Shown: in pieces, positions 7,911 through 64,000 of the stretch | Position numbering within the stretch: the first letter of the stretch is position 1 | Layout: each line of letters starts with the position of its first letter | Source: Rhodospirillales bacterium | GTDB lineage: Bacteria; Pseudomonadota; Alphaproteobacteria; Bin95 | Length of the DNA: 64,000 nt | Assembly (NCBI GenBank): GCA_038143065.1 | Contig: JAYQLI010000012.1 | Location: 1-64,000, forward strand | Direction of reading: 5' to 3' | Notes under the pieces: model-generated | Told to the model about the DNA's origin: nothing | Databases searched by the model: none | What the model saw: only the letters and a program-made list of their open reading frames with translations | Made by a program: the position numbers and the translations under genes

Positions 7911-7987
7911 GCCCAGGTGGCGGAATTGGTAGACGCGCTAGCTTCAGGTGCTAGTGTCTGTATGGAATAGAGTCCTCTCCAGTACCA
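7911..7987 (+). tRNA. tRNA-Leu (CAG); T-arm and 3' end corrupted in this sequence
   Basis: GCCCAGGTGGCGGAATTGGTAGACGCGCTAGCTTCAGGTGCTAGTGTCTGTATGGA is a canonical 5' two-thirds. The 3' part reads ATAGAGTCCTCTCCAGTACCA instead of CGTGGAGGTTCGAGTCCTCTCCTGGGCACCA. Confidence 0.88.
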
Positions 7988-8044
7988 CTTGAAGTATGCT
8001 AAGAAATTTGTCGGGTTTAACCATCTGGAAATGAACATTCCGTA

Positions 8045-8720
8045 ATAATACAGCCACGATTAGAAGACGTATCAACAGCCTGTCTGCTAATCCTGAATTA
8101 TGCCTATGCAGAACTTCATTAGATAGGCCTTATCCATACCCTCAAGACTATTTATCAAAGGAGAAGGTGAAGATCTTAGCCATAAGCGAGGCACCTTTAT
8201 CCCAATGAGAGTTGAAATGGGGATAGTGACAAGGCCTTAGGTTCAGGCTCAGATCACTGATTACGCCTCTCTTGGGAGAAACTAGGCTTCCAGTCAGTCC
8301 ATAGAGATCGTAGGGCTTAAGTTGGAAGATATCTCTGGCTTGAGAAATGGATCTGTATCCATATACTGGTCCTAATTCAGCAAGACGTTTGAAGACCAGA
8401 AGCAGCCAAAGAACCTTACAGCCTGTCTGCTATCCAAGCTATGCCTATGGAGAACTGGACTTGAAAAGGCAGATGATACCTACCTATTTATATAGGAGAG
8501 GGTGAAGATAGCCATGCTACGCATGCTTGCAATGCCCTGAACAAGTGGGGGAAGAAGGACTTAGGTTGGCCTCAGATCATTGCCTCTCTTAGGGATAATT
8601 CAGAGACCGTCTGAGAGCCGTGGAGTGCGGTCTTGAGATCTGATTGATCAAATTGGCCTGGATGGAAGTCGTTTAGCTCAATTGGGAATAGTTACCCTTA
8701 GTTAGTTACCAAAACTCTCA
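8045..8720 (+). pseudogene. 5'-truncated tyrosine integrase remnant, homologous to the integrase at 57154
   Basis: Nucleotide similarity to 57580-58200, e.g. TATCAAAGGAGAAGGTGAAGAT...AGCCATAAGCGAGG and TTCAGAGACCGTCTGAGAGC. Confidence 0.8.
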
Positions 8721-9001
8721 AACTGAAAGAGCATGGACGATATTAATTCCCAAGAATATTAAAACAGACAATTTTTTAATTAGATTTCCCACTATGCCGT
8801 TAAAATGTGGCTGAAAAAGGGACTTTTTCTTGTTGCAGTCTCATAAGATAATCCATGGAAACCAGGTGCCCAAAGGTCTGATTGATAGCCAACGTTTGAG
8901 GCTCATTTAAAATTGCAAAACTCTCAAGCCATGGACGATATTAATTTCGTGAACAAAAAGTGACAATTTTGAAAGCTATGTTTCATTAATGTCGCCTAAA
9001 A

Positions 9002-10836
9002 TTATTCAGGCGGTCTAGTTTAATCCAATTGACGTTTGGACAGGATATTCATTTCATTAAGATTTGCTAATTTCCAATTGACTTGAAATTTTCCAAAGCC
9101 GTCTCTTCATCGCCTTGATCAAAGCTATGTATGACAACATGATATGCCACATCTCATTAATACCTGGCTCATCATAATTTTTCTTGATTTGAGCTTTTAT
9201 ATAAGTTTTCGCTTGCGCATATGCTTTATCATTTTTTCAAACTCGGCGATTAGATATGTCCAAGCAAATCTTTTAAATTCAAAGACTGAAATGAGGTGCT
9301 ATATTTTCCAGTATTTCTAAACATTGATAATGACTTATCATACTGACCGCAGTGTCTTGCTAAGCTAGCTGCACTCGACATAATAGATGGGTCATTGGTG
9401 TTCATCATCTTTTCCAGTCGTCCGGTGGCTATTTCTAACTTACCCAAATAATTTCTCTCTATCATCTGCGCTAAACTTAAAGCGTAAGGATAATCACTAT
9501 TAAATTTTAAAACTTTTTGGGTAAGCTTGTAAGCTTCATTAACATTGTTCTGGAAATCAGACGAAACGCCAAACCATAAAGCCCCCAGAGGAACCAAGCT
9601 TGATCCTCTAAATCAAGGTAAGGATTATTGGGCTCTAAGGTTTTATTAATTTCCAATATTCTTTTATATTCTTGAATTCCCTCTGGAGTCTGCCGTTCAA
9701 ACGCTAATCTTGCTTCTAATCTGTTTAGGTAAACTTCAGGTGTAAATTCATTTTTAATTCCCTCAGAAGCTACATTTAAAGACAATACGCCAGGGATTAC
9801 TTCACTCGAAACTGCTGTGCTAATTTGGTGAATTTCAAAAATATCGTTATCTACAAATCGAAAGTCTCCTGACCAAATAATTTTATCACTCTTTAGATCT
9901 GTAAGATCCAGATTGATTCTGAATTTATTTCTGAGGGATTTTAGAAAGCTTTTGAGTGTAAATTCAACTCCATAAATTATGACTTTCAGTTCTGCCTTGG
10001 TTATTTGCTTACAAGAAATAGTCTACAGAACTTGGATCATGAATAAAGAGCTCATTGTAACGTTTTAGGGGTGATTGAAACGTGGTTGGTTAGAGCAGCA
10101 AGGGTTTTCGTTTGTGTATCATCATTTTTTTTGGTTTCAAATGGATAGATTAACAAAGACTTCTTATTAGCAGCGACCTCAAATCCACTTTTGTAGAATT
10201 CATACTAAAAAGTGAAATATACTATCGCCACTAATAAAATTAATACGATTGAGGCAATAGCCTGAAGTAGCTTTTGCTGAATGGCTTTTTTTCTTTTCGT
10301 TTTTCTAAACCGTCTAGCAACAAATCAAAAAGGCGTGGAATTCGTTTTGCTTAACCTTTTGAAGACCAATGTCGTTGAACTCGCGAGAGGTCTTGCCTTG
10401 ACGGCAAATCATAGACGCTTTTCGATAGCGTAATCCCACCTGTTCAGGCCAAGGCTTCTAGTCTTGCAGCTATATTTACCCCGTCACCAAGGAGATTTTC
10501 TTTTCTTTTACCCCACATCACCTGAGTTGATCCCAAGGGTGGAATTCTAGTTTTACAGACGTATCGTCGGAAGAGTTTCTATCTTTGATAGCCTTCTGAA
10601 ATTCTACGGCGCATTCAACTGCTGAGACTGCACTTGGAAATTCCGCCAGAATGAGTTCACCGCCTGTATTAAACAGACGGCCCTTATACTTTGTTTCAAA
10701 TAACGCAGTTAGGATTTTCTCGCAGGCACGGAGATTTAATTGTGCTGCTCTCATCTGCTTCCATGTGTTTGCTATACCCAACAACATCGGTAGCAAAGAT
10801 GACTGCAATCTTACGTTCAATTTTTTCTTCAGACAT
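9002..10836 (-). CDS. Class III adenylate/guanylate cyclase with TM, TolB-like and TPR regions (many frameshifts)
   Basis: KIAVIFATDVVGYSKHME, GRLFNTGG..LAEFPSAVSAVECAVEFQ and GDGVNIAARLEA across frames. Paralog of 58311-60228. Confidence 0.8.
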
Positions 10837-10953
10837 AAAGCTCGCCACACAGGTGAAATTTTTATGCTTAGCATGCCGTGTGTTGCAAGCAGAGTGTCTA
10901 TAAGAACGTAGGGAAATTCATGCACACTGTTGCAATATATGCCAAGCCTCGCC

Positions 10954-12129
10954 CGTCTAGCCCCCTATACTCGCCCGTTGATTTTTGGTTTCTCGTAAGG
11001 TTTCTGGGACGTAAGGGCGCATGTTTAATGGCATGGTGAGGTCTGATCTGGTTGTATTGCCTGAGCCAGGCATTGATTGCGACCCGGAGCTTGTTTGATG
11101 GTGGAACCATTCGCGTTGAGGACTTCTTTTCGCAAGGTGCCGTTAAAGCGCTCGTTATACCCATTTTCCCAAGGGCTGCCTGGATAGATTTGCATTGGTT
11201 TGATCCCAACCTTCTTCAGCCATCCTGTAGATGCATGGCAATGAACTCTGGTCCGTTGTCAGAGCGAATAAATTCTGGCTTACCATGTTTAATCAGCAGT
11301 GGGTGCAATGCGTTCAAAACATCGTTGCATTCATTTTGGACCGCACTGCCACGCAGAGCGCCTCACGGGTATATTCATCATCTAGAACCGTGAGCATTTT
11401 AGCTAGCTGTGCCCATTGCTAGCTTTATCGCACAAAAGCTCGATCGCCCAAATATGATTGGGTGTAAAGGCCGCAACCTGATGATGGAGCTGTCTTTGAT
11501 AAAGCCATTACGCTTCTTGTGCCGACGCGGCAGCTGCAAACCTTCGTTCCATAAGCGCTCGATCCTCTTGGTTACACGCCAGCTCATCGCAGCAGGCTGT
11601 GACTTTCCTATAACCATACCACCCATATTGCTTGGCCAGCCGGATCATCGCCAAGCGAAGTTCGGTATCATCTGTGGGTTTGGCTTGATAGCGCAGAGTT
11701 GAGCGGCTACATCCAGAACAGCGCAAGCACGCCGCCTGGAAATATCCAGCTTTTGACGCGTATGAATAACAGCCTGACGAAGCTGAGCCCGCGTCAGGCC
11801 CGCGGCTTTAAATGATCAAGGCTCTCCTTCAGGATCAATTTGTCTAACTGCAAGTCGACGATCTTCTTCAAGCGCTCGTTTTCTTTCTTGAGCGATTTCA
11901 TCTCAGAAACCACGAACGAGAAAGGCCTCCAAACTTCTACGCCGTAATAATAACTCTTTATCTGAAATCCCAGCTTGCGACACGCACTCACAACGTCCAA
12001 ACCATCGTGCAAATGAACATCAATTCGCGTAATAACTTCAACACATCTTCATCAGAATAACGCTTTCGAACCATGTTTCCTTACTCCCTTTGCCAATATA
12101 TAACAGCACAGTTCTAGGGGGCTAAGACA
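10954..12129 (-). mobile_element. IS3-family insertion sequence, copy 1 (indel-rich)
   Basis: Reverse-complement homolog of 16808-18004 with both terminal IRs; orfA ends LKESLDHLKPRA. Confidence 0.9.
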
Positions 12130-12728
12130 AGGCTTTAGCCGAAGCAAAAGTAAAGCGCATAACGGGGGGTGATGATTGCAGGTCGTGCCCTGTACAGTTT
12201 ATATGGCTCCCTGAATATTGTTGGTAAAATCATAATTACCACGAATAACTTGCCAAAGATAAATGGTAGGGATCATGGAATTTACGAAGGTTGCAAATTG
12301 TCCCTTCAAAGACGCTTCGAGGCTTCATGAGCAGGACAAAACTTTTGCAGATAAACTCGAGGCAGAGCTTTCGGGCATCCTAAACTGGGCTGCCAGGAGT
12401 TGCCTCGAGTGGTAGGAGCAGGGGCTCAACCCTCCACAGATCGTCAAGGATCCAACTCGATCACTACCCAGCAGGATATGGATACCGCGGGCAAGTTCTG
12501 TTGATGCTCAGCTGGTGCTTGATCCTGCGTCTAAAATCCAATCATCGGAGTTGTATCAAGAATACCGATCATGGTGTCAGCGGCATGGGCTACAGCCAGC
12601 GGGACGACAAGCAATTTAAGGCATCCATGCTGAGGGTCGAGGGGATTGCAGATGGCAGAATCAAAGCTGGACGGCACTTTGCTGGGGTTAGGTATCGTTG
12701 GGACGAAAAGGATGTGATCGGAGGGTAA
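12130..12728 (+). pseudogene. P4-family primase/D5-like helicase C-terminal remnant truncated by IS3
   Basis: LAEAKVKRITGGD...KIIITTNNLPKINGRDHGI..RLQIVPF...ELSGILNWA across frames. Confidence 0.8.
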
Positions 12729-12752
12729 CGATAAGGACGTGCTCTTCTAAAG

Positions 12753-12837
12753 GGTGTCACCGGTGTCAGGTGGAAACAAGTTTTTATAATGTTTTTCTTT
12801 CAGAAAACTTTTGGTTTTACCTGGCACACCTGACACC
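12753..12837. repeat. Ori-like inverted repeats around an AT-rich spacer (copy 1)
   Basis: GGTGTCAGGT (12762-12771) and ACCTGACACC (12828-12837) are a perfect IR, with extra half-sites. Near-identical copy at 61582-61664. Confidence 0.75.
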
Positions 12838-12888
12838 AAGGTCGTTAATAGAGCCTTAGGTCTCGAGCTTCGAAAGAACTTTTCTCCT

Positions 12889-14990
12889 TCATAAGCGTCT
12901 TTTGTAGATGTTCAAAACATATTTTTTGACAGGTGTAAATTTTTTAAGGTTCCCAGAAATTTGTGGGCAATATGCCGTTTTCGAATCTATTGCCTGGATA
13001 ACCTCGACACTCTGCTCTCGTACCAGGATTGATGTTTTCTCTGATATACGACCCGTAGTTGCTAGTAAGAGTTTAGCATTGCCACCATGAATTTTCTCCC
13101 ACGCCAATTAGCTCTCCTAATAGCGGACGGTTGGACTAGATCTGAATACGTCTTTGCATTGTGCAATCCAGGTTTGAACTTCTGAGTCCAACTTCAATGG
13201 TTGCGATTACGTCGATGCCATCATCGCCACTTTTTTCCAACATGTTCTTCAAAAGCCTGCACGTGCAAAACCACGCTGCCACATCGGCTTCAAACTTAAA
13301 CCATAAATTCCTTTTCCTTTTGATCGTTCGCAGTTTGGTTGAAAGTATAGAGCTAGCAGATCTGTCTAAATACGGCCCGCAGGGCTTTATCGCCACGTTC
13401 ATGGCGGTTTTACAAATGTTTGATTGATCTTTAGATCAATGCCGTATCGCTCGGCGAGGAGAGACGCTTTGTTAGAAACAGCTCCTTTATGTGTCTTGCG
13501 TGACCTCTGGACAAAATGCGATCTTTCGCTTGTCCAATTGAAGTTCAGAATATAGTTTTTTTGAACTTAATTTGTTGATGTATTGTGCTCGGGGTAAGTA
13601 GATCACCCTATCTCTACGCCCTTTAGTTTTGCGACCTCTAGTAATCTCTTTTTCTAATTGTTTCAAAGACTTTTCTCTTTGTTCTAAGACCCAAAAATCC
13701 CTAATTATGCTTACAATTACTAAAAGCAAGGTGAGCTTCAATTTTTTGATGTCTTGGCCGTGTTCAAAATTTATGGCAGGTGAAAACCAGACTCGTGATC
13801 TTCTGGTTTGACAAACCCACAAAGCACGTAAAGATGTCCGATAAACCAATTTAAAAAAATACTTTGCCTGAAATTTCGTTAAAAAATACCTTCAAATTCT
13901 CCGACCTGTAAATCACAGTAGGCATCTGGTGGAATAGTCCAATATTTATTAGAAACGCATTCATCAAATAAATCGATAACCGACCGCTCAAGCTCGTTTA
14001 TCGATACCTCCGATTCTATATTTTTGAAACAACCCTGTGGATCTGTATCCCAAGACCCTGAAGTTACAAAAGACCGCTCTTGCGAAATTAGAATTTCATT
14101 ATCAAGTGACCAGCCATGCAGATCACTCAATGGAAGATCTTGAAAAGCCTTCCCATAAATGTTTCAGTTCTGCATGAGTAAAATTCTTAGGTTCTAGCGT
14201 CATATACCTGATGGATCGGCTTTGCACTACAAATGAACGGAACTTGGGAAGCTTGAGTGCAAAATCTGAGAAGGGTCCAATTCATTTAGAAAACGAAAAA
14301 TTTGTTCAGGTATTCCTGTAAAATCCTCCCGCTGAACTTTGATTGTATCCTGTACTAATTCTAAAATTTTAGTTATAAATTTTGTTCTGTTTCAATTTCA
14401 AATAACTCTTTAAATACGTCGTCCTCATCGGAGGTGGAAGAGTAGTCTCTTAGTCCATCCGGATCGTCTAGAAGAGACAAGCCACTTTCATAAACCTTTT
14501 GAGAAAATCATTAAATTTAACGCTTGAATGTTGTTTGCAATATTCCAAAAATCGTAAAGTTTTTCTGTGTGAGGATTAAATGCTTCACCTTCCTCCTCAA
14601 CTTCGTACTCGACAGAGCCTATAAAAGAACTCTCTAAAATGCTGCATGCAAAGAATTCTAATAAAAGTCTGTCTTTGCTAGGCTTTTCAAACTTTAGATT
14701 TCGCTTAGCACCTAAGCATATGTTCCATATGGCAGCTTTTTAGCTCTAATGTTCTTCACTTATTGTAAAACGTCCATCGAGAGCATCCGCTATTAGTTCG
14801 CCGATTTCTGGTTTTGAGATAAGAATCTGCCTGTAAAAAAGTCCGTCTGTAAAATTTAATTGTATTTGCTTGGCAGTCTTCCAGGTAGTAAAATTCTCCA
14901 TTATCATTGAATAGAATAAAGCTCCAAACCTTGTTGCAGAAGGAATTATAACTGATTTTTTGGCCAGGATCTAAAATATCTTCTAAAACA
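12889..14990 (-). CDS. Large AT-rich protein with a C-terminal Mrr-like restriction endonuclease domain (frameshifted; start approximate)
   Basis: Reconstructed WFKFEADVAAWF..GF...SGDDGIDVIAT...WIAQCK...PSAIRELIG...LLLATTG, preceded by HFVRGHAR...YG...TFVKPHERG. Confidence 0.65.
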
Positions 14991-15702
14991 AATGTTTCCT
15001 ATTTGGTTTAATGTCAATAACTCAAGGTCTGTATAATCAACAAAATTATCTCGGGTATTTGCCTTTCGTATCGAGAGGTTATTGACGTTGATATTCCTAA
15101 ACTCAGAAGACTTCTCGCATACAAGAATAAAAAACAGGTATCTTGTTACTCACGTAGCTGAGCTCATAATTGCTCAACTTGCGGCTAAGTACATGATCAC
15201 CATTTTTAGGGAGTTTTCATCACTCCGCTGTCATCAACAACATGAAGCGGGCCAATACCGTACAAATACTCTGGTTGACGAAAATTTGATGCGCCCTAAT
15301 TGGGATCGAACCCTTGGCTTCTAAAAGGTTGGTCGGTTTTTGGTGGGCGATGTTCTAAAATAGCACGTAGGTTTTCAAATACCAACTCAGGCTCCGATGC
15401 GATGTCTTTTTGATTTTTCAAAATTCGTAAATTAAAAAGTTCGTAGAATTATTTTATAGCTTTTAAATCTTAATTTGAAACAAAAAATTTTGAAATTTTG
15501 TAGTTTTTATAAATTCACAGGACCTTAAACTTTAAGCTTCGCATAACTTGTAGTTTTGGCATATCCGATATTTAGGGCGGCGTTTATGGATGACTCAAAC
15601 TCTCATCTTATCACTAAGTTCAAAATTCCCGGAGGGCATTTTGAAAAAGGCGTAGCAATCATAACTCCACTGAGTTTCTGAATGTATTATTTGACCTTAT
15701 AA

Positions 15703-15955
15703 AAACTGGTTAACACATCACAGCTCACCTCACTGTCAAAGCCTAAGTATATACAACGGGCACAGGGGGTGTGGCCCATGCGTACCCACTCATCTGGTAC
15801 CGACTTATTGTATCGAAACAGGCAGCTTACCTTGAAATGAGTTCACGAATTAGTCTACGCCATCGAGTGAACCTATGTCGTCCCACCCCTTGGACACATC
15901 TTGTCGCCATTTTGGTCCACATTGGCACATTAAGGAATAGGTCGTGTGTTGACAG
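15703..15955 (+). repeat. Conserved ~250-bp non-coding module, copy 1
   Basis: Aligns along its length with 62871-63122; the first ~80 bp also align with 61429-61509. Confidence 0.85.
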
Positions 15956-16026
15956 GCTGTGTGTACCGTGTGATTTTATACGCAGAATTGACGTAAGTGT
16001 CTGATAATGAAAACGAAGCGATTTAG

Positions 16027-16083
16027 AGCTTCAGGTGCTAGTGTCTGTATGGACGTGGAGGTTCGAGTCCTCTCCTGGCACCA
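16027..16083 (+). repeat. att site: 57-bp duplicate of the tRNA-Leu 3' half
   Basis: AGCTTCAGGTGCTAGTGTCTGTATGGACGTGGAGGTTCGAGTCCTCTCCTGGCACCA with no 5' half. TGTGTAC arm-like repeats at ~15960, 16139 and 16162. Confidence 0.92.
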
Positions 16084-16353
16084 TTATTTAAAATAAATCA
16101 ATGAATTACAGATATTTATTTAACTCTTTGTTGCGACTTGTGTACCAATTTTTGGTATATTTGTGTACTAGTTATTTGGCCTACTTAAATTACCAAGTCT
16201 TCTAATTCATTTCTTGACACACAATTAGTTGGTATTGCTCCAAGGTTGCGAAGTTAATCATTGGGGTTGAAGAGATATCAGTGTTGCGACAACTTGTAGC
16301 TTGTTTGGTTTATTCTCCGCTTTATCTTTACGCCAACAATCAGGAGAACCATC

Positions 16354-16510
16354 ATGAAACTTATCACAACGTCATTTTTTGTTCTTATCCTGTCTACTCC
16401 CTTTGTGGCAGCTGACGGATGCGGAAACCACGGTAAAGACGTGACTATGTCCTGCGCTGTAGGACAAATTTGGAATCGAGACGCAGCGGTGCATGGACAC
16501 AAACGCCTAA
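16354..16510 (+). CDS. Small secreted Cys-containing protein (not in ORF track; probably one frameshift)
   Basis: RBS CAGGAG, then MKLITTSFFVLILSTPFVAADGCGNHGKDVTMSCAVGQIWN..TQRCMDTNA*. Confidence 0.55.
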
Positions 16511-16536
16511 GAAATTAAAGCCTAATTGGAGTGCTT

Positions 16537-16755
16537 ATGTTGGTTGCTAAAAAAATTATCGCTGCAAATCTAATCGTTGGTGGCGCTATAGTGGTCGCCG
16601 CTGGAACAGCAGCGATTGCTTATGCAATGTCTGACCCCAATTTCAGAGACAAGATCAAGGACTGCTCTGACAGAATGCGTGATTGCGCAAACAGAATGTG
16701 TAATCGTTCTTCCGATAGTGGTGATCCTGAAATGGCTAACTCAACCTCTAATTAA
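16537..16755 (+). CDS. Small membrane-anchored hypothetical protein
   Basis: GGAG RBS, hydrophobic N-terminal segment, and Cys every 7 residues (DCSDRMRDCANRMC). Confidence 0.55.
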   Translation: MLVAKKIIAANLIVGGAIVVAAGTAAIAYAMSDPNFRDKIKDCSDRMRDCANRMCNRSSDSGDPEMANSTSN

Positions 16756-16807
16756 GTTACACCTACGACGACAAGACGATATGGCCTTAGACATGTATCT
16801 GCCGTGT

Positions 16808-18004
16808 TGTCTTAGCCCTAGAACTGTGCCAGTATATTTTGGCAAAGGGAGTAAGGAAACATGGTTCGAAAGCGTTATTCTGATGAAGATGTGTTGAAGT
16901 TATTACGCGAGATTGATGTTCATTTGCACGATGGTTTGGACGTTTTGAGTGCGTGTCGCAAAGCTGGGATTTCTGATAAGAGTTATTATTACTGGCGTAA
17001 GAAGTTTGGAGGCCTTTCTCGTTCACAGGTTTCTGAGATGAAATTGCTCAAGAAAGAAAACGAGCGCTTGAAGAAGATCGTCGCTGACTTGCAGTTAGAC
17101 AAGGTGATCCTGAAGGAGAGCCTTGATCATCTAAAGCCGCGGGCCTGACGCGGGCTCAGCTTCGTCAGGCTGTTATTCATACGCGTCAAAAGCTGGATAT
17201 TTCTGAGCGGCGTGCTTGCGCTGTTCTGGATGTAGCCCGCTCAAGTCTGCGCTATCAAGCCCAACCCACAGATGACACCAAACTTCGCTTGGCGATGATC
17301 CGGCTGGCCAAGCAATATGGGTGGTATGGCTATAGGAAAGTCACAGCCCTGCTGCGCATGGAAGGCTGGCGTGTTAACCACAAGAGGATCGAGCGCTTAT
17401 GGAACGAAGAAGGTTTACAGCTGCCGCGCCGGCACAAGAAGCGCAAACGGCTTTATCACAAAGACAGTTCCATCATCAGGCTGCGGCCCACACATCCGAA
17501 CCATATTTGGGCGATCGACTTTGTGCACGATAAGCTTAGCAATGGGCGCAGCTATAAAATGTTCACGGTTCTAGATGAATACACCCGTGAAGCGCTCTGC
17601 GTGGCAGTGCGGCCCAAAATGAATGCGATGATGTTTTGGAGACATTGCACCCGCTGTTGATTAAACATGGTAAGCCAGAGTTTATTCGCTCTGACAACGG
17701 ACCCGAGTTTATTGCCACGCATCTACAGGACTGGCTGAAAAGGATTGGGATCAAACCAATGCAAATCTATCCAGGCAGCCCTTGGGAAAATGGATACAAC
17801 GAACGCTTTAACGGCACCTTGCGAAAAGAAGTGCTCAACGCGGAATGGTTCCACACCACACAAACAAGCTCAGGTCGCAATCAATGCTTGGCTCAGGCAA
17901 TACAACCAGATCAGACCTCACCATGCATTAAACATGCGCCCACCCGTCCCAGAAACCCTATTAGAGAAACCAAAAATCAATGGACGAATATAGGGGGCTG
18001 GACA
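16808..18004 (+). mobile_element. IS3-family insertion sequence, copy 2 (orfA 16861-17148, orfB ~17145-17993)
   Basis: TG...CA termini with IRs TGTCTTAGCCCTA / TAGGGGGCTGGACA. HTH orfA; DDE orfB with WAIDF, IRSDNGPEF and PWENGYNERFN. Confidence 0.95.
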
Positions 18005-18281
18005 GTATGGGGTCAATAGGTATTAAAACCTTCTCAGGTACACCCATGTTTCATTGACAAAAGCGGGGCCCCAGAGTATTATTAAAGTTGTTTTTAGGTG
18101 CGCTCTTATACGCCTATAAGTGTAAGATAAAAGATTTACTTCGGCCTTCCTGCGTTGCCAGCTTTCGTCTCAAACCCAATCCCCCAAAAATATAAAAATA
18201 AGAAATAAGTTTGACCTGAACTGAGGTGCTTCGTATCGTTTGGGTTAGTGAAATCGATTTAATTTAAAGAGGGATATTGAA

Positions 18282-18731
18282 ATGAAACATTCAGGTGGCT
18301 GCCATTGTGGGCAGGTGAAGTTTGAAACTGACTTGAACCCAATGCTTTCGATGCAATGTAATTGTTCCTCATGCCGACGTTTAACTGGGTCTGTGAATAT
18401 GGGTATGTATTATCAAGAAGATGAAGTGAATTTTTCGGGAGACCAAGTTTATTATGAGTATGAAGGTGGTAGTGGTGGAAATATGAAGATGGGTTTCTGC
18501 CCCAAATGTTATGTCAGAGTTTCAGCCAGACCAGAAATATTAGAGGGCGTTGTGGGTATGCCACTCGGAACATTTGACAAGGCGAAAGAAGTTGAAGGTT
18601 TGAAGCTGGAAATCTGGACAAGTGAAAAGCTAAAGTTTCTTAAAGACAACGATTGCTTTGAAATGCGGGTTGAAGATAGCGGCCTGATGGAGCGTCTTGC
18701 GACTTTAATCGAGAGTGTTGAAAACAGATAA
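18282..18731 (+). CDS. GFA/CENP-V family zinc protein
   Basis: GGCHCGQV, CNCSSCRR and FCPKC motifs. Confidence 0.9.
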   Translation: MKHSGGCHCGQVKFETDLNPMLSMQCNCSSCRRLTGSVNMGMYYQEDEVNFSGDQVYYEYEGGSGGNMKMGFCPKCYVRVSARPEILEGVVGMPLGTFDKAKEVEGLKLEIWTSEKLKFLKDNDCFEMRVEDSGLMERLATLIESVENR

Positions 18732-19180
18732 CCTATCTTTTGTCAGCATTGAATTGAATGCCATTGGCTCTAACTCTAACAAGTAGCCAACAAACTGGTC
18801 ACCAGTGGGGTACCGTATAGGCCAGATACGAAGTATGTACCCACGATAGATAGATTAACCGAACTGTCCTTTTAGCATATTTAAAAGTTCTTCATGGTTT
18901 TGGTTAGTGACTGTCACGGGTTATCGAGACTTCTACTCCATCTTTATGCTTCTTGTCACGACGTAAACGACCCGATTGCTTGGGTTCCAACACGTTGTTC
19001 GCTTTTGCATACACGCTCGTAACAGCAAGATTGGTTGCCATAGTGTGAGTGTATAAATTCATATTACCACCTCACTTCTAATTTGCTTTGTTCATTAAAA
19101 TACGGTGGAAAGTCCAAATTGTTTAACCAGCCACAAAGTCTACTACATTATGAAGTCTGTCATAGTATTTACTCTTAATG

Positions 19181-19245
19181 CCCACCCGTCCCAGAAACCC
19201 TATTAGAGTAACCAAAAATCAATGGACGAATATAGGGGCTGGACA
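19181..19245 (+). mobile_element. IS3 right-end fragment
   Basis: Matches 17939-18004, including the IR. Confidence 0.85.
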
Positions 19246-19247
19246 GT

Positions 19248-19510
19248 TGATGCCGTGGTAAAGCGCTATGCCAAGCTTAGGAGGCTCACCTGACCTCCAA
19301 AGCAGCGTGTTCCACTCCACCCGCAAGTGGTTCATCACCCAGTGTGAGCGTACAGGCACCCCTGAGCACTTCACTGCCTCCCTTGTGGGGCATCACTCTG
19401 CACGCTCTGCCAATAAGCTTACTTATGGGCTGTACTCAGCTGGCATCAGTGATGCGCAAAAGCGAGATATCATTGATCAGGTAAAGATGCCTCAGGGCGC
19501 AAGGCTATAA
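19248..19510 (+). pseudogene. C-terminal fragment of a tyrosine recombinase
   Basis: VFHSTRKWFIT...LVGH...TYGLYS supplies the H-x-x-R, GH and Y motifs; abuts the IS3 end. Confidence 0.8.
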
Positions 19511-19799
19511 GCCAAACAGTAAAAGCTGACCCCCTCTTATCCCTGACATCGAAACCTTTGAGGAGCGAGTGGCCATTATGGTGCACGCGGGCGGCATTCC
19601 AACCGACCAAGCTAAGGACCTTGCAGCGCAAGCCCAAGGTTTCCGCAGTCAGGCTCATTACTGGGCGTGGCTCAGGGTCTATGTCGACAGGAAACGGTTG
19701 GGGTAGGCCCCCGACCAAAAACCAAGCCAGCTTCCCAGAGCGGGGGGCTGGGTATGCTTTTCCTATTTTTTTGCAAAGAGGGGTTGGGGTAGGTGCAGT

Positions 19800-19953
19800 G
19801 TGGCAGGCACTCACAACATCCCTATCTCCATGAAGATGAACTTCAACCTTGAGCAAAATCTTCAACGCGTCTTCGTCCGAATACGGTTTCAGTGCCATCC
19901 TTGAAACCTCCTGTGACCATTAAGTAATGGCATAGTTTTAGTAGGATAAGACA
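19800..19953 (-). mobile_element. Diverged IS3 left-end fragment
   Basis: TGTCTTATCCTACTA terminus; MALKPYSDEDALKILLKVEVHLH resembles orfA at 16861. Confidence 0.8.
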
Positions 19954-20046
19954 GGAGTTCCTTGAGGCGTGTAATAATTACGGAAGCGATGATATCTTGG
20001 GCATTAAGCGCAAATATATAAGTCAAACGTGCAATGTGATCTAAAA

Positions 20047-21743: not shown

Positions 21744-21747
21744 TTAC

Positions 21748-25046: not shown

Positions 25047-25073
25047 GGGTAGGTACTCCTTTTGTTTGGATGA

Positions 25074-47771: not shown

Positions 47772-47774
47772 GGT

Positions 47775-48569: not shown

Positions 48570-48591
48570 TCTAAGCAGAATATATCAAACT

Positions 48592-48607
48592 AGTTGACTA
48601 GTCAACT
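48592..48607. promoter_or_regulatory. Putative GntR operator
   Basis: Perfect 16-bp palindrome AGTTGACTAGTCAACT about 22 bp upstream of the gntR start. Confidence 0.65.
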
Positions 48608-51761: not shown

Positions 51762-51827
51762 AATTTAACTTTCCAAGCATGTTAGAAGGCGTCTAAAACG
51801 CCTCCGAACAGGTTGAATCAAGTGACT

Positions 51828-52820
51828 TTAATTAAGGGATTGTGCTGCGTTGATCATGTCCTGACCAACATCATCCGCGAATTGATCCCAGACTGGTTTC
51901 ATAACATCAACCCATGCCTGACGCTCTTCAGGCGTTAGAGTCCGAACTGTGCTGCCCGCCTCAATTATAGCTTGCCGGTTGGCTTGGTTTACAGCAAAGG
52001 ATTGAGCATTGCGAAGCTCAGTTACCTCGTTCAAGATCGTTAAAAACTGGTCGCGGACATCGGCTTCCAGGCTATCAAGCCAATCAACACTGGTCACAAC
52101 CAGATAGTCAATAATACCGTGGTTGGTTTCCGTGATACCGTCCTGTACTTCGAAAAACTTCTTACCATAAATGTTTGACCACGTGTTTTCTTGCCCATCA
52201 ACGACACCTTGCTGTAACCCACCATAGACTTCAGAAGGCCATTTTTTGTGGAGCTCCTCCGGAGTGCTTCCATTTGGGCCACCAAAACGTCTGACGACAT
52301 CACACGGAATTTAAGACCATTAGCGTCTGCTGGTGACATCAACGGTACATTAGCAGACATTTGTTTCATACCGTTATGCCAGAATGTCAAACCTTGAAGA
52401 CCACGCTTTTGCATACTGTCCAGCAAAGCCTGCCCAGCATCAGAGCCTTGGAATGCATCGACGGCTTCGATGTTCTCGAACATGAAAGGCAAGTCAAAGA
52501 TACGGAACTGTTTGGTGAACTTCTCAAATTTTTGACAGCGATAGGCGCTGCTAATTGAACATCATTCTGAAGCAATGCTTCAAGAACTTTATTATCGTCA
52601 TAAAGGGTTGAATTTGGGAAAACCTCCATACAGGCCTTGCCGTTCATCTCATCATTGACACGCTGCTCTAGCAACGTGGCTGCTATTCCTTTTGGATGTT
52701 TGTCAGTGTTGGTAACATGGCTAAATTTAATAACGGTTTCGCCTGTATCGCAAGCGGCAAACGCGGATGTAGCACCTAATGCAATGTCATCGATAATGCT
52801 GTGTTCAACAGAAATTTCAT
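51828..52820 (-). CDS. dctP: TRAP C4-dicarboxylate-type substrate-binding protein (frameshifted)
   Basis: FSHVT..KHPKG, VFPNSTL, FDLPF, GLKFRV.SS and DGQENTW motifs. Confidence 0.92.
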
Positions 52821-53000
52821 GATATCCTCCTTTGGTTCTTTTTACCGCGTTCCTGATTTCTTCTGGCGCGGCTTATGTTGGAAAGATTACTGGGATTGAC
52901 GCTGAAGATTAGTCGACAAAACTGTTCAGTTTTTACGATTAAATATTCAGGTTTAATCTGAAATAGTGGATAAAAATTAAACATACCCAGGGAGTTCAAA

Positions 53001-53913
53001 ATGTTTGAGGGTTTCGTGCGCGAGCGTATCGAAGGAGACGGTGCGACTTTGTTTGTTCGCCGCGCTGGACCTCAAGATGCACCTCCGCTTGTTCTTCTTC
53101 ACGGTTATCCGCAGACTTCCGCTATGTGGCACGGTGTGGGCACCAATTCTGGCACGCTCTTATCAAATCGTCTGTCCCGATTTACGCGGATATGGTCAAT
53201 CAGATAAACCAGTGTCAAATGCATCGCATCAGCCATATTCAAAACGTGCTATGGCCAATGACATTGTCGCTGTGATGCGGCGTTTGGGTCATGAACGGTT
53301 TCTGGTTGGCGCCCATGATCGGGGGCGCGGGTGGCGCATCGGATGGGTTTGGATCATCCTGATCGTGTTGCCGCCATGACTTTGCTCGACATCGCACCGA
53401 CCCGCGAAATGTATGCCAATACCAGTGTCGAATTTGCGCACGCTTATTGGCACTGGTTTTTCCTGACACAGCCAGACCCGCTGCCCGAAAAAATGATCGG
53501 AGCAGATCCCGAAACGTTCTGGAAGATGAAATGCTTTAAACAGGCAAAGCGGCGAAAATCCGTTTTCCTGCGAAGCTCTGACGGAATACCTGAGCGCCTT
53601 CGCAGAACCCCGACGCTATTCATGCAAGCTGTGAAGACTATCGTGCCGCCGCCAGATCGACATTGAACATGATGACGCAGATCAGGGTCGAAAACTCGAC
53701 ATGCCACTCTTGACGCTCTGGGCGAAAACGCGGAGTAATCGAAACATGCTTTGACGCACTTAGCACTCTGGCGGCAGCGGGCTGAAAGGGTTGAGGGCGA
53801 AGCGCTCGATACCTCTCACTATATGGCTGAAAGAAATCCCAGGTGACATAGCAGAGCGCATGTCTGATTTCTTTTTCCGCAATCCGATCCACGCAAAGGA
53901 AACTGCTCAATGA
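53001..53913 (+). CDS. Haloacetate/fluoroacetate dehalogenase-like alpha/beta hydrolase (frameshifted)
   Basis: LLHGYPQT..MW, AHDRG.RVAHRMGLDHP, DIAPT, AYWHWFF, CEDYRA and SHY.AE motifs. Confidence 0.85.
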
Positions 53914-55290
53914 CCCGCACGCTCTACGACAAACTGGTGGATAACCATAAGGTTTGCGATCTGCCCGATGGCGATATGCTGATTTATGTCGATTTTCACA
54001 TCATGAATGAATACACCAGTCCGCAGGCGTTTTCTGGTCTGGAAACAAGGGGTTAAGCGTCTGGCGTCCGGAGGCGCATCTGGCTGTGATCGATCATGTG
54101 AACGCAACCCGCAGTGTCGAAGCACATGATGCGGCAATCCAAAGCTGCTGATCGATAATTTGGAAAAAACTGCACCAAACATCAAATCGCATTTTACGGT
54201 TTGGGTGACCCGCGGCCAAGGCATTGAGCATGTTATAGTTCCAGAACAGGGCTTGGTCACGCCGGCATGCTGATAGCATGCGGCGATAGCCACACAACAA
54301 CCTATGGCGCCTACGGCGCGTTGGGGTTTGGCATCGGCACATCGAAGTGGAACATGTTCTAGCAACGCAAACGCTACGATATAAGCGTATGAAGACAATG
54401 CGCGTTATGATCGACACGAAAGCACCAGGCGTGACGGCAAAAGACATCATAATGAAGGTGGTCCAAGTCGTGGGCGCAGGTGGAGCCAATGGGTTTGCTG
54501 TTGAGTTTGCAGGTTCAGCCATTGTCGGTCTTGATATGGCCGGACGGATGACCGTCTGCAATATGGCGGTTGAGTTGGGCGCGCGTGCGGCGTTGATCGC
54601 AGCAGATGAAGTCACCGAAGCGGCGCTTACAAGGATACCCGCACAGCGGTCAATTTGCGTTTAATGGTGAAGACTGGGTCAGCGATTCCGGAGCCGTCTT
54701 TGACAAGGAGGTCACCGATTTCAGGGGCCGATATCGAGCCTTTGATCACATGGGGCACCAGTCCAGACCAATCAGTACCGATAACCGCGAATGTACCTTC
54801 TGCGTCTCGATTACGTCTCTCCCAAAGCCAAGGCGGCTTTAGCGCGGTCTTTGCAATACATGGGGCTCACAGAAGGGGCAAAGTCGGCCCAATCGATCAA
54901 AATCGACACGGCCTTTATTGGCTCGTGTACCAATAGTCGTATCGAAGATCTACGAGAGGCAGCCAAAATACTGGAAGGCCGGCAAGTCGCGGAGGCGTTG
55001 AAGCTATCGTAGTTCCTGGCTCCGCCATGACACGGATAAAGGCGGAATCCGAAGGTCTGCGCGCGATTTTGAGGACCGCAGGGTTTGATTGGCGACCAGA
55101 GGCGGGCTGTTCTTTGTGTCTAGCGATGAATGACGATATTGCTATGGAGGGGGAACGGGTAGCTTCATCGACTAACCGGAATTTTGAAGGGCGGCAGGGC
55201 CGAGGCGCACGCACCCATCTAATGTCACCCGCAATGGTCGCTGCAGCAGCCGTTTGTGGGCATCTGGCTGACATACGAGATTTTGAGTGA
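53910..55290 (+). CDS. leuC: LeuC-like aconitase-family dehydratase large subunit (frameshifted)
   Basis: [44 protein letters not shown] and [11 protein letters not shown] motifs. Confidence 0.9.
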
Positions 55291-55301
55291 AAGACAAACC
55301 A

Positions 55302-55901
55302 ATGATAAAAACTATTAAAGGAATCGCGCCCCTTGCCACTGGCGAATGTTGATACGGATGTGATCATGCCGAAACGGTTTTTGATTACAATCAGCCGCGA
55401 AGGCTTGCAGATGGTACCTTTGCCGATCTGCGCTTTGACGCAGCTGGCCAAAAGCGGCAAGAATTTATTCTAAATAAAACGCCTTGGACGCAAGCAACAA
55501 TCTTAGTTGTCGGAGATAATTTTGGATGCGGTTCAAGCCGAGAACATGCCGTCTGGGGAATGCGCCAATTGAAGATTGATGCCTGTATAGGAACAGGGTT
55601 CGCTGGGATATTTTATGATAATGCGCGTAAAAATGGTCTTGCTTTGCCGGTCGTATCTCCTGAAGTGCGAGACTTACTTTTACAATTTTCGGATAATCAA
55701 AGCGGCGCAGAGATTTCCATAAACCTTGAGCGCCGTATGATTGCCGCAGGTGAAAGTTCGGTGCCGTTCGAGATGGATGATACGCGAATAGCGCTGATCC
55801 GAGGCCGCGACGATACGCTTGACACGTTGAGCTACGCTTCTGCAATCCGCGAATTTGAGACTGGATTGGATGAAAAAATGCGGATAAGCGTTATAAAATG
55901 A
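55302..55901 (+). CDS. leuD: LeuD-like small subunit (frameshifted)
   Basis: NVDTDVIMP, NFGCGSSREHAVW and FAGIFYDNA.KNGL motifs. Confidence 0.9.
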
Positions 55902-56811
55902 ACCTGCAGAGGATATTGGATTGGACATAAGACAACTGGAGTGTTTCATCGCTGTCGCCGAAGAACTTCATTTCAGGAGCAAGCGAACGCCTAGGGCTAA
56001 GCCAATCCGCTCTCTCTGAACGGGTTTCTTCGTTGGAACACGAACTGGGCGCCCCGACTGTTTTTTAGAACTACTCTGACAAGTCAGTCTGACCCAAACT
56101 GGATCTGAATTTGCACAAGATGCAAAAAGGATCCTGACCGATATTGATAAATCGGTTTCCAATGTTCGCCACACCGCCGAGTCGGACCTTCACCACATTC
56201 GCGTAAGCGGTGTTGACGAGGCAATTTCGATGTTACTACCGCAGGTTCTACTGACATTTCGGCAGACCGATTTTAAGGTGCATGTACAGGTTCTGGAAAT
56301 ATCGTCATCCGAACAACATTCCCACGAGTTGATTGCCCATAGAACTGATGTGGCCTTCGTACGGACGCGCCTAGAAGATGACTTTATTTCCAGCGAACTT
56401 TTGCATCGTCAACCCATCGTAGTGGTCCTTGCCGAGACGATCCTCTTTCAAGATCGGTATCCCTGTCCATAGCAGACATCGCGGATCAACCAATCGTGGG
56501 TTACCCTAAGCACGCGCGACCAATCCTGCACGAGGCTTTGTGGAGTGGTTTTCGAAAAATTGGTGCCCAGCCAAATATAGTTGTGAGATTATTGACAAAT
56601 CCACCCTGTTGCAGTTTGTCGCCCCATGGGCTAGAATCGCCTTGGCACCAGCCTGGGTCAAGAATATTGCACCGCCTGGGATCTCTTTCGTCCCCTTTGA
56701 ACCTCCGAAAACCTGATCGATTTATAAGGTGGCATTTCGAAAGTCGGGTAACTCCGAGACTGTTAAAAGGTTCGTTGAAACCGTCAGAAAAAGCATTATC
56801 CAGGCGACTTA
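55898..56811 (+). CDS. LysR family regulator (frameshifted)
   Basis: DIRQLECFIAVAEELHF HTH start and DVAFVR motif. Confidence 0.85.
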
Positions 56812-57011
56812 ATTGCAAATATTTTTTGCCAATGGCTGCGTATTGCTTCGGCGCCTTTTTTGAAATTAAAACGTTATTAGGACTGGAAGTCAGCAACTTA
56901 TTAAGTAGGCGCAAAATTACGCTTTGTCCGCAAAGCAGACCTCAGGCATTGGCCTTGCGAATGTCTGATTTGGGTTAAGGTACAAATCGAAACGCTAATT
57001 ATGATTAAAAT

Positions 57012-57106
57012 CAGGACCACATTTAGACCGCTTTATAATTTCATCTTAAAAATAAGTAATTGTAATTAAATAGAAGTATATAAAGTACGACGTCCTTCTG
57101 GCACCA
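57012..57106 (+). repeat. Right end of island C: arm-like repeats plus degenerate tRNA-Leu 3' core
   Basis: About 95 bp homologous to 28561-28657, ending TGTAATTAAATAGAAGTATATAAAGTACGACGTCCTTCTGGCACCA. Confidence 0.85.
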
Positions 57107-62808: not shown

Positions 62809-62824
62809 TGCCGACAAGAAGGCC

Positions 62825-62857
62825 AGATCATCTTCAAAGCCAGATGATCTTGACTTT
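62825..62857 (+). terminator. Possible intrinsic terminator
   Basis: AGATCATCT-N8-AGATGATCT hairpin just after the MetE-like stop; weak T tail. Confidence 0.4.
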
Positions 62858-62870
62858 AATCAATCTTTAC

Positions 62871-63122
62871 AAACTGGTTAACACACCCACAGCTCACCTC
62901 ACGGTCAAAGCCCAAGTATATATAACGGGCATAGGGGTATAAGCCCATGCGTCCCATCTTTGTGGTACCACTTATTGTATCGAAACATGCTACCCACGCT
63001 TTGGAATGAGTTTTACGAAATAGCTACATCGAGTGATCTAAATCTATAGTCCACTCTTGGATCTTGTCACATTTATTTGGCTCATATTGGTACACATCAA
63101 GGGATAGGCCATATGTTGACAG
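62871..63122 (+). repeat. Conserved ~250-bp non-coding module, copy 3
   Basis: Aligns with 15703-15955. Confidence 0.85.
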
Positions 63123-63192
63123 ACAACTTTATTGATGTGACTAATATTTCAAGCGGTTTAAAAGTTCTGAAAATTCAAAATACTGAATAGAT

Positions 63193-64000
63193 ATGAAAAT
63201 TACATTAAGGATAATCATTCTCTTAGGGGTTTTTGCTCATCTGACACCAGCTCTACTTCTGTCTTACACTGATTACTCCAGCGAAGACGGATCTGGAAAA
63301 CAATTTCAACTTCATGATTGATCAACCGCAGAGAATGTGACAGGCGCTTACGACTTGGTTGAAGTCGGATTTCGGATTTTGTCACTGAGTTTGGAAAATC
63401 AAATGCTTAGTGCCTTTGAGCCTTTTAAGGCTGCATATTTTGAGGTTAATGGTGAGGTTTCTAAAATTGATTTAGCTGAACTAAAAGAAGAGTTGGGCGA
63501 TGAAGTTGATTTTGTATATAATAGACGAACATGGTGTCATCATACACAACATTTGAAAAGGATTTAAATCTAGATTTCTCAAAAGTTGCACCAGGCTTCA
63601 ACAAAACTCCAAGAAATAAGAATGATAAAGTCAGTATCAGGTAGTAAGATCATGTCTCCAAATGAGACCATTACTGGTAATGTTCGCAAATGCCCTGCTG
63701 GGCACTCCTGACAAAAAGTATATTCTAGAAAATTGGTATAAAATCATCTCCCAATTTGAGCACCAGATTATTTAAAGATCTTGATTTATTGAAAATTTCT
63801 AGTGACTTTGAACAATTTAATCCAGATCTCAAGTCAGTTATCATTTTTAATGGAAATGGAAAAGTAGCGAATAAACCTGATTTTGCTGTTATGAGATCAA
63901 AGAAAGTAACATTGTAGATGTTTATGAAAGTGGCGAGCGGCTTGATATTGATAGGGTATTAAAGCTTCTGAAAAATGGATTTATGTTAAAGCTGATATTG
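63193..64000 (+). CDS. Hypothetical exported protein (frameshifted, partial)
   Basis: MKITLRIIILLGVFAHLTPA signal-like start and ORF fragment 63337-63567; no family recognised. Confidence 0.35.

Follow-up and report, generated by a model that had tools for sequence, protein, structure and literature searches.

What has built the long run of sequence behind the broken tRNA-Leu(CAG) gene at position 7911 of contig JAYQLI010000012.1 (C12, 143 kb), from the Rhodospirillales bacterium assembly GCA_038143065.1 (4.63 Mb in 52 contigs)? We analyzed the first 64 kb of this contig, referred to as the window; coordinates that carry the prefix "C12:" and exceed 64000 fall outside it. A first-pass annotation had read the region as a tandem stack of related tRNA-Leu-targeting, integrase-bearing elements with transporter and catabolic cargo, which the anatomy of the locus and its Pfam domains support. 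In our judgement the region is probably an additive genomic island, in which small integrative elements with tyrosine integrases of their own were serially inserted into one tRNA-Leu(CAG) gene. The modules are designated E1 to E5 and typed A, B or C by integrase lineage. The stack is about 74 kb long, and long intact genes resume at about 82.9 kb. Its borders and modules in the window are as follows (att, attachment site).

7911..7990, + strand: broken tRNA-Leu(CAG), attL of E1; the 5' 56 nt are intact to 7966 and are followed by a degenerate, element-derived 3' part
7967..16026, + strand: E1, A-type element of low GC content (38%)
16027..16083, + strand: attR of E1, 57 nt, the displaced tRNA-Leu 3' part from the anticodon stem to CCA
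16084..19242, + strand: left part of E2, type unassigned, without integrase (Pfam, repeats)
19243..19498, + strand: C-type integrase remnant, comprising the last 69 codons only (19289-19495)
19499..28560, no strand given: E2 cargo (Pfam), frames mostly open
28561..28657, + strand: right end of E2, with a putative arm site (GGACC repeats at 28562-28578) and the att core
28637..28657, + strand: att core at the right end of E2, a perfect 18-21-nt copy
28658..57091, + strand: E3, B-type element, with its right end at 57013-57091
57092..57106, + strand: degenerate att between E3 and E4, 15 nt, with three 1-nt gaps relative to the perfect copy in the metagenome contig L034
57107..64000, continuing to C12:65457, + strand: E4, a second A-type element of low GC content

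The 3' end of tRNA-Leu had been reported to recur along this stretch, and it does so at 16027 (57 nt), at 28637 (18-21 nt) and, in degenerate form, at 57092; a further, perfect copy lies beyond the window at C12:66766-66786. Four copies are therefore present on C12 after the tRNA 5' part, and such recurrence of tRNA 3' ends at cassette borders is characteristic of additive islands. Neither ARAGORN nor Rfam called a tRNA at 7911, and each found a single tRNA in the window, tRNA-Met at 1622-1698. The element-derived part at 7967-7990 is a faulty copy of the tRNA 3' part that lacks the 5' half of the T arm. When E1 was removed in silico by joining 7911-7966 to 16054-16083, ARAGORN called the product as tRNA-Leu(CAG). 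The 57-nt copy at 16027-16083 starts with 27 nt identical to 7940-7966 and has CCTGGCACCA, one G fewer than the canonical acceptor, where the 57-mer of L034 has GGG. A fuzzy search of the whole 4.63-Mb assembly with the 18-mer (at most 3 errors) returned 22 matches, comprising four on C12 (16065, 28637, 57092 and 66766), two on contig C13, the tRNA-Leu(CAG) gene on C35, a tRNA-Leu-like fragment on C51, and 14 further matches on C3, C6, C28 and C35, at least two of which lie at the 3' ends of other tRNA-like sequences. The working tRNA-Leu(CAG) of the assembly (C35:367033-367119) differs in the anticodon stem and variable arm and has no adjoining element.

Integrases or their remnants had been said to follow the tRNA copies; they lie at 8044-8778, at 28829-30172, where the frame is open, and at 57154-58253. 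The integrases fall into three lineages, A, B and C, all of which combine an N-terminal DUF6538 domain with a Phage_integrase catalytic domain. In an alignment of 12 of them, the B-type was 26-27% identical to the A-type and 19-20% identical to the C-type, and all 12 retained R286, K316, H380, R383 and Y415. The A-type is associated with the 57-nt crossover and the B-type with the 18-nt crossover, and the C-type is represented here by remnants only. The proposal that two crossover points are used in one tRNA stands, as both registers recur in L034 and in a single-cell genome (L004).

In eight of 11 B-type loci, the integrase is immediately preceded by tRNA-Leu sequence (a whole gene in five, a fragment in L004, L005 and L010), and nothing of this kind was found in L007, L009 and L017. 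The B-type integrase is located 130-250 nt after tRNA-Leu(CAG) in HTCC2083, in a Sulfitobacter metagenome-assembled genome (MAG; L008), in an uncultured Rhodobacteraceae MAG (L006) and in a Planktomarina MAG, and it follows tRNA-Leu(TAA) in nBUS_22. A-type elements occur directly after the CCA of tRNA-Arg(TCT) in L037 and of tRNA-Arg(CCG) in L042, with near-identical left ends. Since 14 of the 17 related integrase loci come from records of Rhodobacteraceae, Paracoccaceae or roseobacter genera, the element family is clearly at home in the roseobacter group.

The order of borders in the window is found again elsewhere. The independent metagenome contig L034 has, in succession, a B-type right end, an 18-nt att, an A-type element, a 57-nt att and a B-type integrase, which is the border grammar of the window with other cargo (a peptide ATP-binding cassette (ABC) transporter). 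A foreign right end is followed by a 57-nt att and a B-type integrase in L004, and a B-type right end by att and integrase in L010. In HTCC2083, tRNA-Leu(CAG) is followed within 21 kb by three integrase genes, which are separated by genes for cyanate lyase, an ABC transporter and amino-acid-related enzymes. Other modules occupy the same site in L004, L005, L008, L011, L013 and L034, so content differs between related strains at one site, as in additive islands. This border grammar reappears with different modules in sources of several kinds (HTCC2083, MAGs, a single-cell genome and a metagenome contig), and the comparison indicates that the modules move independently.

We also compared the window with metagenome contigs from 4 of 24 listed runs, representing four studies. 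Contigs that are 99.6% identical to the left flank up to 7938 diverge there into other sequence, and in run X4 a different element end abuts 16027. The first-pass annotation had named one invariant block in relatives as an outcome that would speak against a stack; what we found is divergence of the flank contigs at 7938 and modules that vary. E1-specific DNA was present in none of 60 related genomes, which matched only the IS3 part of the element, and the E3 cargo gave weak paralog-level matches alone in 36 relatives. Joints of 7956 to 16054 were considered as evidence of excision and rejected; they are other organisms' tRNA-Leu genes, because the letters between the two sides differ and the sides measure only 21-25 nt.

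A simple sequence of events would produce these borders. An element whose attP carries a partial tRNA copy would recombine with the tRNA gene, and each integration would push the earlier 3'-end copy and everything behind it downstream, so that partial tRNA copies would come to mark the module borders. For A-type elements, the crossover would be in the anticodon-stem/variable-arm region, with an attP that holds the tRNA from the anticodon stem on; integration would rebuild the tRNA at the left and leave the old 57 nt at the right. In the presumed order of insertions, a B-type element would then integrate in the last ~18 nt of the rebuilt tRNA, and this would leave an 18-nt copy just before the A-type left end, as observed at 57092-57107 and in L034. 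Modules without an integrase, such as E2, could be moved by the integrase of a neighbor, since E2 has kept both att copies and arms, and elements of the stack may be mobile at the present day.

The putative arms are marked by a short repeat. The motif GGACC-N6-8-GGACC occurs three times in the 64 kb (expected, 0.13), always at most 95 nt from the att at 28637; repeats 12 nt apart are located once 59 nt before this att and twice 57-69 nt after it. A 21-mer with the GGACC motif recurs at the left ends of E5 and L008. The right ends at 28594-28644 and 57046-57096 are 92% alike. Spaced by one helical turn on both sides of the core, the GGACC repeats are likely arm-type sites bound by the N-terminal domain of the integrase. 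By sequence, the nearest solved relatives of the integrase are 'Int protein' (6EN0 and related entries), XerA/XerD and integrase chains such as 1Z1B. Matches to solved recombinases start at profile position 137 or later, so that the N-terminal part remains available for contacts with the arms and the DUF6538 part is a candidate arm-binding domain. Lambda-type tyrosine integrases are heterobivalent and have arm-type sites. The integrases studied here resemble them in having catalytic and core-binding domains, an extra N-terminal domain, and short direct repeats on both sides of the core, but differ in that the N-terminal domain is DUF6538, with GGACC as its putative binding site.

Several observations weigh against a serially built and mobile island. 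A single integrase of the stack is open in the window, and its last ~10 codons, after the catalytic Tyr, are frame-shifted. No closing att copy was found beyond C12:66786, leaving the right border (~82 kb) undefined, and none was found beside the second and third integrases of HTCC2083. Circle junctions had been suggested as a check, and no circle junction, excision product or empty site was seen in the metagenome contigs. The arm-site and in-cis mobilization roles are ones that we infer. Finally, misjoins at repeats are possible in this contig, the contamination of the assembly is 5.5%, and the small contigs and the main chromosome have no mobile elements in common.

The last point leads to the question of whether the stack is a chimera, in which the assembler joined repeats of co-existing strains or of a second organism. 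The small contigs total 1.78 Mb, have 1.5 kb of DNA in common with the main chromosome contig, C35, and differ from it in tetranucleotide composition, while being heterogeneous in composition among themselves. As much as 19.5% of small-contig DNA has a copy of at least 88% identity on another small contig and almost none has one on the main chromosome, where a search likewise found no copy of the island's mobile elements. The assembly contains 30 DUF6538-type integrase loci, and 28 of the 29 other integrase loci are on small contigs. The genes for asd, pepA and carbonic anhydrase on C12 (window 1984-7877) are second copies, 42-59% identical to those on C35. Although these data are what a chimera would predict, the same border grammar is present in the independent L034 and partly in L004 and L010, the module copies are too diverged for collapsed repeats (73-81% for E1/E4; 94.6% for the E3/E5 integrases), and metagenome contigs span the E2 interior unbroken for 6.9 kb. 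We consider a chimeric stack very unlikely.

The origin of C12 is less certain than its anatomy. The main chromosome C35 carries a genus-type tRNA-Leu(CAG) and a genus-type asd (75-84% identical to genus relatives), whereas the asd of C12 is 63-65% identical to genus asd. Its best DNA matches (74%) are in family f94, with carbonic-anhydrase-asd synteny; a B-type-like integrase was found in 5 of 151 f94 genomes with at most 44% identity, which does not settle the host taxonomy. The epimerase gene adjoining the tRNA has a 61-62% identical counterpart beside tRNA-Leu(CAG) in HTCC2083, Planktomarina and a Sulfitobacter MAG, and the tRNA-Leu of C12 is of the type found in these three. The single-copy genes secA, argJ and infB are all on C35 and are 52-65% identical to those of a metagenome contig that hosts an A-type element. 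A Roseobacter-group host had been proposed; the C12 flank and the element family are indeed roseobacter-like, but the main chromosome belongs to another lineage, and the host assignment is therefore uncertain. Three origins are conceivable for C12: it may be an accessory replicon, it may be a large region that was acquired, or it may come from a second, roseobacter-like organism in the bin. The assembly may mix two entities.

Returning to the additive island, its two A-type elements are both damaged but share a common plan, with the following features.

8044-8778, + strand: E1 integrase remnant, 5'-truncated (tblastn with intact A-type proteins from metagenome loci)
9082-10836, - strand: E1 cyclase-TPR gene remnant (tblastn)
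10955-12130: E1 IS3 copy (repeat comparison)
15701-15787: E1 87-nt module (repeat comparison)
57154-58253, + strand: E4 integrase remnant (Pfam DUF6538 and Phage_integrase fragments, tblastn)
58972-60309, - strand: E4 cyclase-TPR remnant (tblastn)
61424-61510 and 62870-62956: E4 87-nt modules (repeats)

E1 and E4 match in 12 of the 20 repeat families shown (42 were found), with 73-81% identity over two long blocks (622 and 674 nt); short blocks reach 93%. A P4-type primase remnant had been counted among the features that segments share; tblastn shows that the 81% block common to the first and last segments (10333-10945 and 59730-60331) is the start of the cyclase-TPR gene and not a primase. 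From the 5' end of the E1 integrase, ~414 nt have been deleted (offset of 8042/57572 versus left ends at 7991/57107). In intact versions from four metagenome loci, the integrase (365-384 aa) and the cyclase-TPR protein (619-666 aa) are encoded by convergent genes, and the latter protein combines a class-III nucleotide-cyclase domain at its N terminus with TPR repeats at its C terminus. No replication gene was found in these intact A-type elements. A weak Pox_D5 match at 12416-12616 (E 0.007) was considered as a primase remnant and rejected, as it falls in a module that is non-coding in intact relatives.

A conserved non-coding module common to segments had also been described, and an 87-nt module is indeed present in three copies in the window and in 8 of the 16 loci searched, with one to three copies per A-type element (three in L031, two in L034, and also in L033, L038, L039 and L042-L044). 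It was considered as a structured RNA with a possible long hairpin; this found no support, as a 12-copy alignment with 16 predicted pairs showed no compensatory changes. Metagenome contigs have rearranged joints at this module (15776 to 15721, and 15782/15787 to 12681/12693).

Some A-type elements have more than one cyclase: L031 (719-3902 and 7256-9145) and L042 (1941-5973) carry two or three class-III nucleotide-cyclase genes, and one metagenome A-type cyclase is fused to a 2Fe-2S ferredoxin domain, others to TPR repeats. Pycsar anti-phage systems pair the pyrimidine cyclase PycC with an effector encoded next to it (PycTM or PycTIR). In PADLOC, the cyclase-TPR proteins match PycC models weakly (best, 1.8e-07) and two other cyclases of L031 match at 6e-29 and 3e-26, with no match to Pycsar effector models among the proteins of the A-type loci. 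The PycC matches may reflect the shared class-III cyclase fold.

In E2, the left part contains an IS3 copy (16807-18003) with split transposase frames and a GFA-family gene (18282-18731, Pfam). The C-type remnant that follows is new relative to the first-pass annotation; 19289-19495 matches a 423-aa integrase of L005 with 84% identity over residues 354-422 of the query (tblastn), and the remnant is 85% identical in nucleotide sequence to C12:75969-76228. The cargo encodes adenine deaminase, an ABC transporter with an NMT1/THI5-like binding protein, a 5-formyltetrahydrofolate cyclo-ligase-like protein, an RpiR regulator and an alpha/beta hydrolase, and metagenome contigs are ~99.7% identical to it over 19912-26800 (6.9 kb). 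In all four runs, metagenome contigs join 19193 back to 18159, giving a 1035-nt unit with the GFA-family gene; this joint implies that in nature the unit is tandemly repeated, circular or differently flanked. Direct repeats of 59 nt are located at 17938-17996 and 19180-19238.

The B-type element E3 has its integrase at the left end and a long cargo region, with the following features.

28714-28742: putative left arm sites of E3
28829-30172, + strand: E3 integrase, open, 447 aa (Phage_integrase 7e-17), the sole open integrase of the tRNA-Leu stack in the window
32132-32701: conserved gene for a 189-aa protein, 55% identical to a 204-aa protein of L005
48993-49190: IS3 fragment
49255-49442: primase fragment, ~60 codons (primase hidden Markov model, E 3.7e-6)

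The conserved 189-aa protein gave no usable match in the protein atlas. The cargo of ~25 kb, in broken frames, specifies an aldehyde dehydrogenase, SIS and PfkB proteins, a nucleoside-type ABC transporter with a Bmp/PnrA protein, a GntR regulator, the tripartite ATP-independent periplasmic (TRAP) transporter DctPQM, a hydrolase and a LysR regulator. Overall, the cargo of the island serves to take up and catabolize organic compounds of nitrogen and carbon. Further parts of the stack lie beyond the window.

C12:65458-66735 (L001 1458-2735): 1.28-kb element with terminal inverted repeats of ~50 nt and a broken DUF6538 integrase-like gene
E5: B-type integrase split into three pieces, plus the conserved small gene; its primase, at C12:70325-71655, is broken
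C12:74965-76224: C-type integrase remnant, followed by further cargo

The 1.28-kb element stands exactly where the 57-nt att of E4 should begin, and in place of the tRNA-derived part of that att there are the 39 nt that follow the element; contig C5 has a 90% copy of the element.

A P4-type primase remnant had been noted in the window. One fragment (49255-49442) is there, but the larger remnant, C12:70325-71655, lies outside. The intact arrangement is seen in the Sulfitobacter MAG locus L005, where tRNA-Leu is followed by a 431-aa integrase (77% identical to that of the window), the 204-aa protein, a 540-aa P4-family primase/helicase ~1 kb after the integrase, a 209-aa HNH endonuclease, a 104-aa protein and the next integrase, the backbone being ~5 kb. 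The primase matches phrog_1156 (9e-28) and DUF5906, and TIGR01613 below its cut-off; the HNH protein matches phrog_1872 (6e-13). Reported inverted repeats resembling an origin were unconvincing, as only six short, AT-rich, imperfect pairs were found in three regions.

The L005 backbone raises the possibility that the B-type elements are phage satellites of the P4, phage-inducible chromosomal island (PICI) or virion-encapsidated integrative mobile element (VEIME) kind. They would excise when a helper phage infects the cell, replicate by means of their P4-family primase and be packaged in capsids of the helper, and the island would be a by-product of repeated satellite lysogeny. Such a reading, which bears on the route of transfer, is compatible with an additive island. 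The VEIMEs of Alphaproteobacteria share core replicative genes, with primase/helicases, and their module 2 adds HNH endonucleases, proteins common in phage packaging machines (PMC9618062). L005 is alike in its size of ~5 kb and in its integrase, P4-family primase/helicase and HNH genes, and its primase shares 33% identity with the product of a Roseobacter phage RDJL3 gene over 216 aa. In contrast to satellites, no packaging, capsid-remodeling or helper-control genes were recognized, and the elements of the window are 8-28 kb long and dominated by metabolic cargo. Searches of the L005 and L012 backbones with Pfam, PHROGs and NCBIfam detected, from the P4 set of primase plus sid/psu, delta and epsilon, the primase family alone, in relatives and remnants. 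Neither the window nor these backbones contained a recognizable capsid, terminase (terS included), capsid-size or antirepressor gene. The B-type copies of the window have lost nearly all of the primase, and A-type elements are devoid of replication genes. No relatives turned up when IMG/VR was scanned with the cyclase fragment of the A-type, the integrase of the B-type and the primase of L005; such scans detect close relatives only and are no evidence of absence from virions. In a phage collection, matches reached at most 26% for the integrase and 33% for the primase, RDJL3 being the best, and in a plasmid collection, DNA matches were limited to the IS3 part (78.5%) and tRNA-like stretches, with at most 41% identity for the integrase. 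Taken together, a satellite nature of the B-type elements seems to us rather unlikely.

The absence of capsid, tail and conjugation families, as reported earlier, was borne out among 79 open reading frames (ORFs; Pfam) and 108 stop-to-stop frames of E1 and E4. No Pfam family for a type IV secretion system or a relaxase, the hallmarks (with oriT) of integrative and conjugative or mobilizable elements (ICEs and IMEs), was found among the ORFs of the window and of C12:64-92 kb. In Streptococcus, ICEs and IMEs form tandem accretions with cis-mobilizable elements (CIMEs), which are mobilizable remnants. The integrase-less E2, located between att copies beside E3 and with matching right ends and arm motifs, resembles such an accretion, but no conjugation or mobilization genes are present here.

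Close parallels exist with islands of other marine bacteria. Tycheposons of Prochlorococcus are defined as elements that integrate in tRNA genes, have at the end a site-specific integrase from a tyrosine recombinase lineage of their own, share hallmark genes for mobility and replication, and carry nutrient or phage-interference cargo (10.1101/2020.12.28.424599). Like the elements studied here, they have a site-specific tyrosine integrase at one end facing inward, leave partial tRNA copies on integration, may have a small primase/helicase module near the integrase, carry nutrient-acquisition genes (here including the cyanate genes of the HTCC2083 array), and occur in islands where degenerate remnants lie beside full elements (10.1101/2020.12.28.424599). 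The integrase follows att immediately and reads inward in E3, E4, E5 and their relatives, and the cargo of the window includes transporters of the ABC and TRAP kinds as well as adenine deaminase and aldehyde dehydrogenase, and that of HTCC2083 includes cyanate lyase alongside an ABC transporter. Unlike tycheposons, the present elements are found in another host group, their integrases carry DUF6538, and the A-type elements have cyclase-TPR genes and no replication gene; the likeness is one of organization and cargo.

The concept of the additive flexible genomic island stems from work on Alteromonas. Additive islands are described as cassettes beside a tRNA with recurring tRNA 3' ends of ~20 bp that carry metabolic and resistance genes (PMC10872708). 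The recurring 3' ends at cassette borders and the strain-variable content are common to both systems (PMC10872708). The present island differs in that most cassettes show their own integrase or a remnant of one, and that 57-nt and 18-nt registers alternate in one array. Literature searches returned nothing on DUF6538 and nothing joining tycheposon and Roseobacter, and among records on roseobacter islands with tRNA-Leu, on additive islands and on Planktomarina, no title or abstract start described these elements. The region is a real tandem stack that works like tycheposon-built or additive islands, a kind already known from other marine bacteria; the family to which it belongs, from the roseobacter group, has three integrase lineages, uses two crossover registers and is apparently undescribed.

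How much of the stack has decayed? Open frames of at least 150 aa cover 0-0.65 of most 4-kb bins between 8 and 82 kb, compared with 0.84 on the main chromosome, two E2 bins being the exception (0.83-0.87), and only 2 of the 30 DUF6538-type integrase loci are full-length without stops. The elements and their cargo could accordingly be regarded as long-dead pseudogenes, the frame breaks being real decay in a genome that loses functions. Some lesions fit this, as they cannot be read errors: the 414-nt truncation of the E1 integrase, the IS3 copies, the absence of an integrase from E2, the 1.28-kb inverted-repeat element and the loss of the primase are probably all real. Several modules are indeed truly damaged, with the E1 integrase truncated, IS3 inserted, E2 devoid of an integrase, and the tRNA split with a faulty element-derived half.

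The small frame breaks tell a different story. On contig C8, a copy of the TRAP region has intact DctP, DctQ and DctM genes, and its comparison with C12 gives 210 substitutions and 51 indels; no indel exceeds 3 nt, and 28 run in one direction and 23 in the other. In five of the seven C8 frames (the three TRAP genes and those of 459 and 206 aa), 98 of 140 substitutions (70%) are at third codon positions, and DctP shows 15 synonymous differences and one non-synonymous. A pseudogene with 51 indels should show far more substitutions, spread evenly, so the pattern on C12 looks like that of a gene kept by selection. The E5 integrase, compared with that of E3, has 64 of 103 substitutions at third positions and 8 indels, and the E4 integrase, largely in line with this, has 95 of 178 and 12 indels compared with that of L042. 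As controls, two intact metagenome A-type integrase pairs gave 58-61% at third positions with one or two indels, and a partial B-type pair gave 61% with none. Contigs from the four studies differ from E1 over 9083-10368/10377 more by gaps than by substitutions (20 other letters and 39 gaps), with identical counts in all four. L034, L037 and L042 agree with one another against the window at small indels near att, and the att copies of L034 are perfect where the window has 1-nt gaps. On the basis of the third-position pattern, the indels of at most 3 nt and the independent contigs, most of the dense small frame breaks are probably sequence or assembly errors and not decay. Either cause is possible for the 1-nt att gaps (16074 and 57092) and for the shifted frame over the final 10 codons of the open integrase. 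We regard a stack made up of long-dead genes as improbable; the apparent graveyard of pseudogenes is probably an artifact of assembly quality and should not be read as genome decay. Dense patches of 1-3-nt indels break frames on the small contigs, and pseudogene counts on this assembly need caution.

A second hot spot lies to the left of the stack. An open integrase of 365 aa (Phage_int_SAM_5; 414-1511, - strand) is located just downstream of tRNA-Met(CAT) (1622-1698, - strand), one of nine tRNA-Met(CAT) genes in the assembly. Broken relatives of this integrase occur on C2, C5, C8, C9, C33, C42 and C47, all of them small contigs.

For the roseobacter group, a more far-reaching proposal is possible, which we put forward tentatively: that pelagic roseobacters have a counterpart of the tycheposons, in which three lineages of DUF6538 integrases share a tRNA-Leu(CAG) dock through different registers, a minimal vehicle with primase and HNH genes resembles a satellite, integrase-less cassettes that keep both arm sites are moved by their neighbors, and the whole serves as a main trade route for nutrient-uptake operons (cyanate, nucleoside and TRAP). 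Roseobacters are among the most abundant and best-studied marine heterotrophs, and plasmids and gene transfer agents are usually regarded as the vehicles of their gene exchange. If the proposed mechanism is true, stacking tRNA-Leu elements with uptake operons would be a third route of gene exchange in this group. They would also provide an experimentally tractable counterpart to the tycheposons of Prochlorococcus, since carriers such as HTCC2083 and Planktotalea are culturable.

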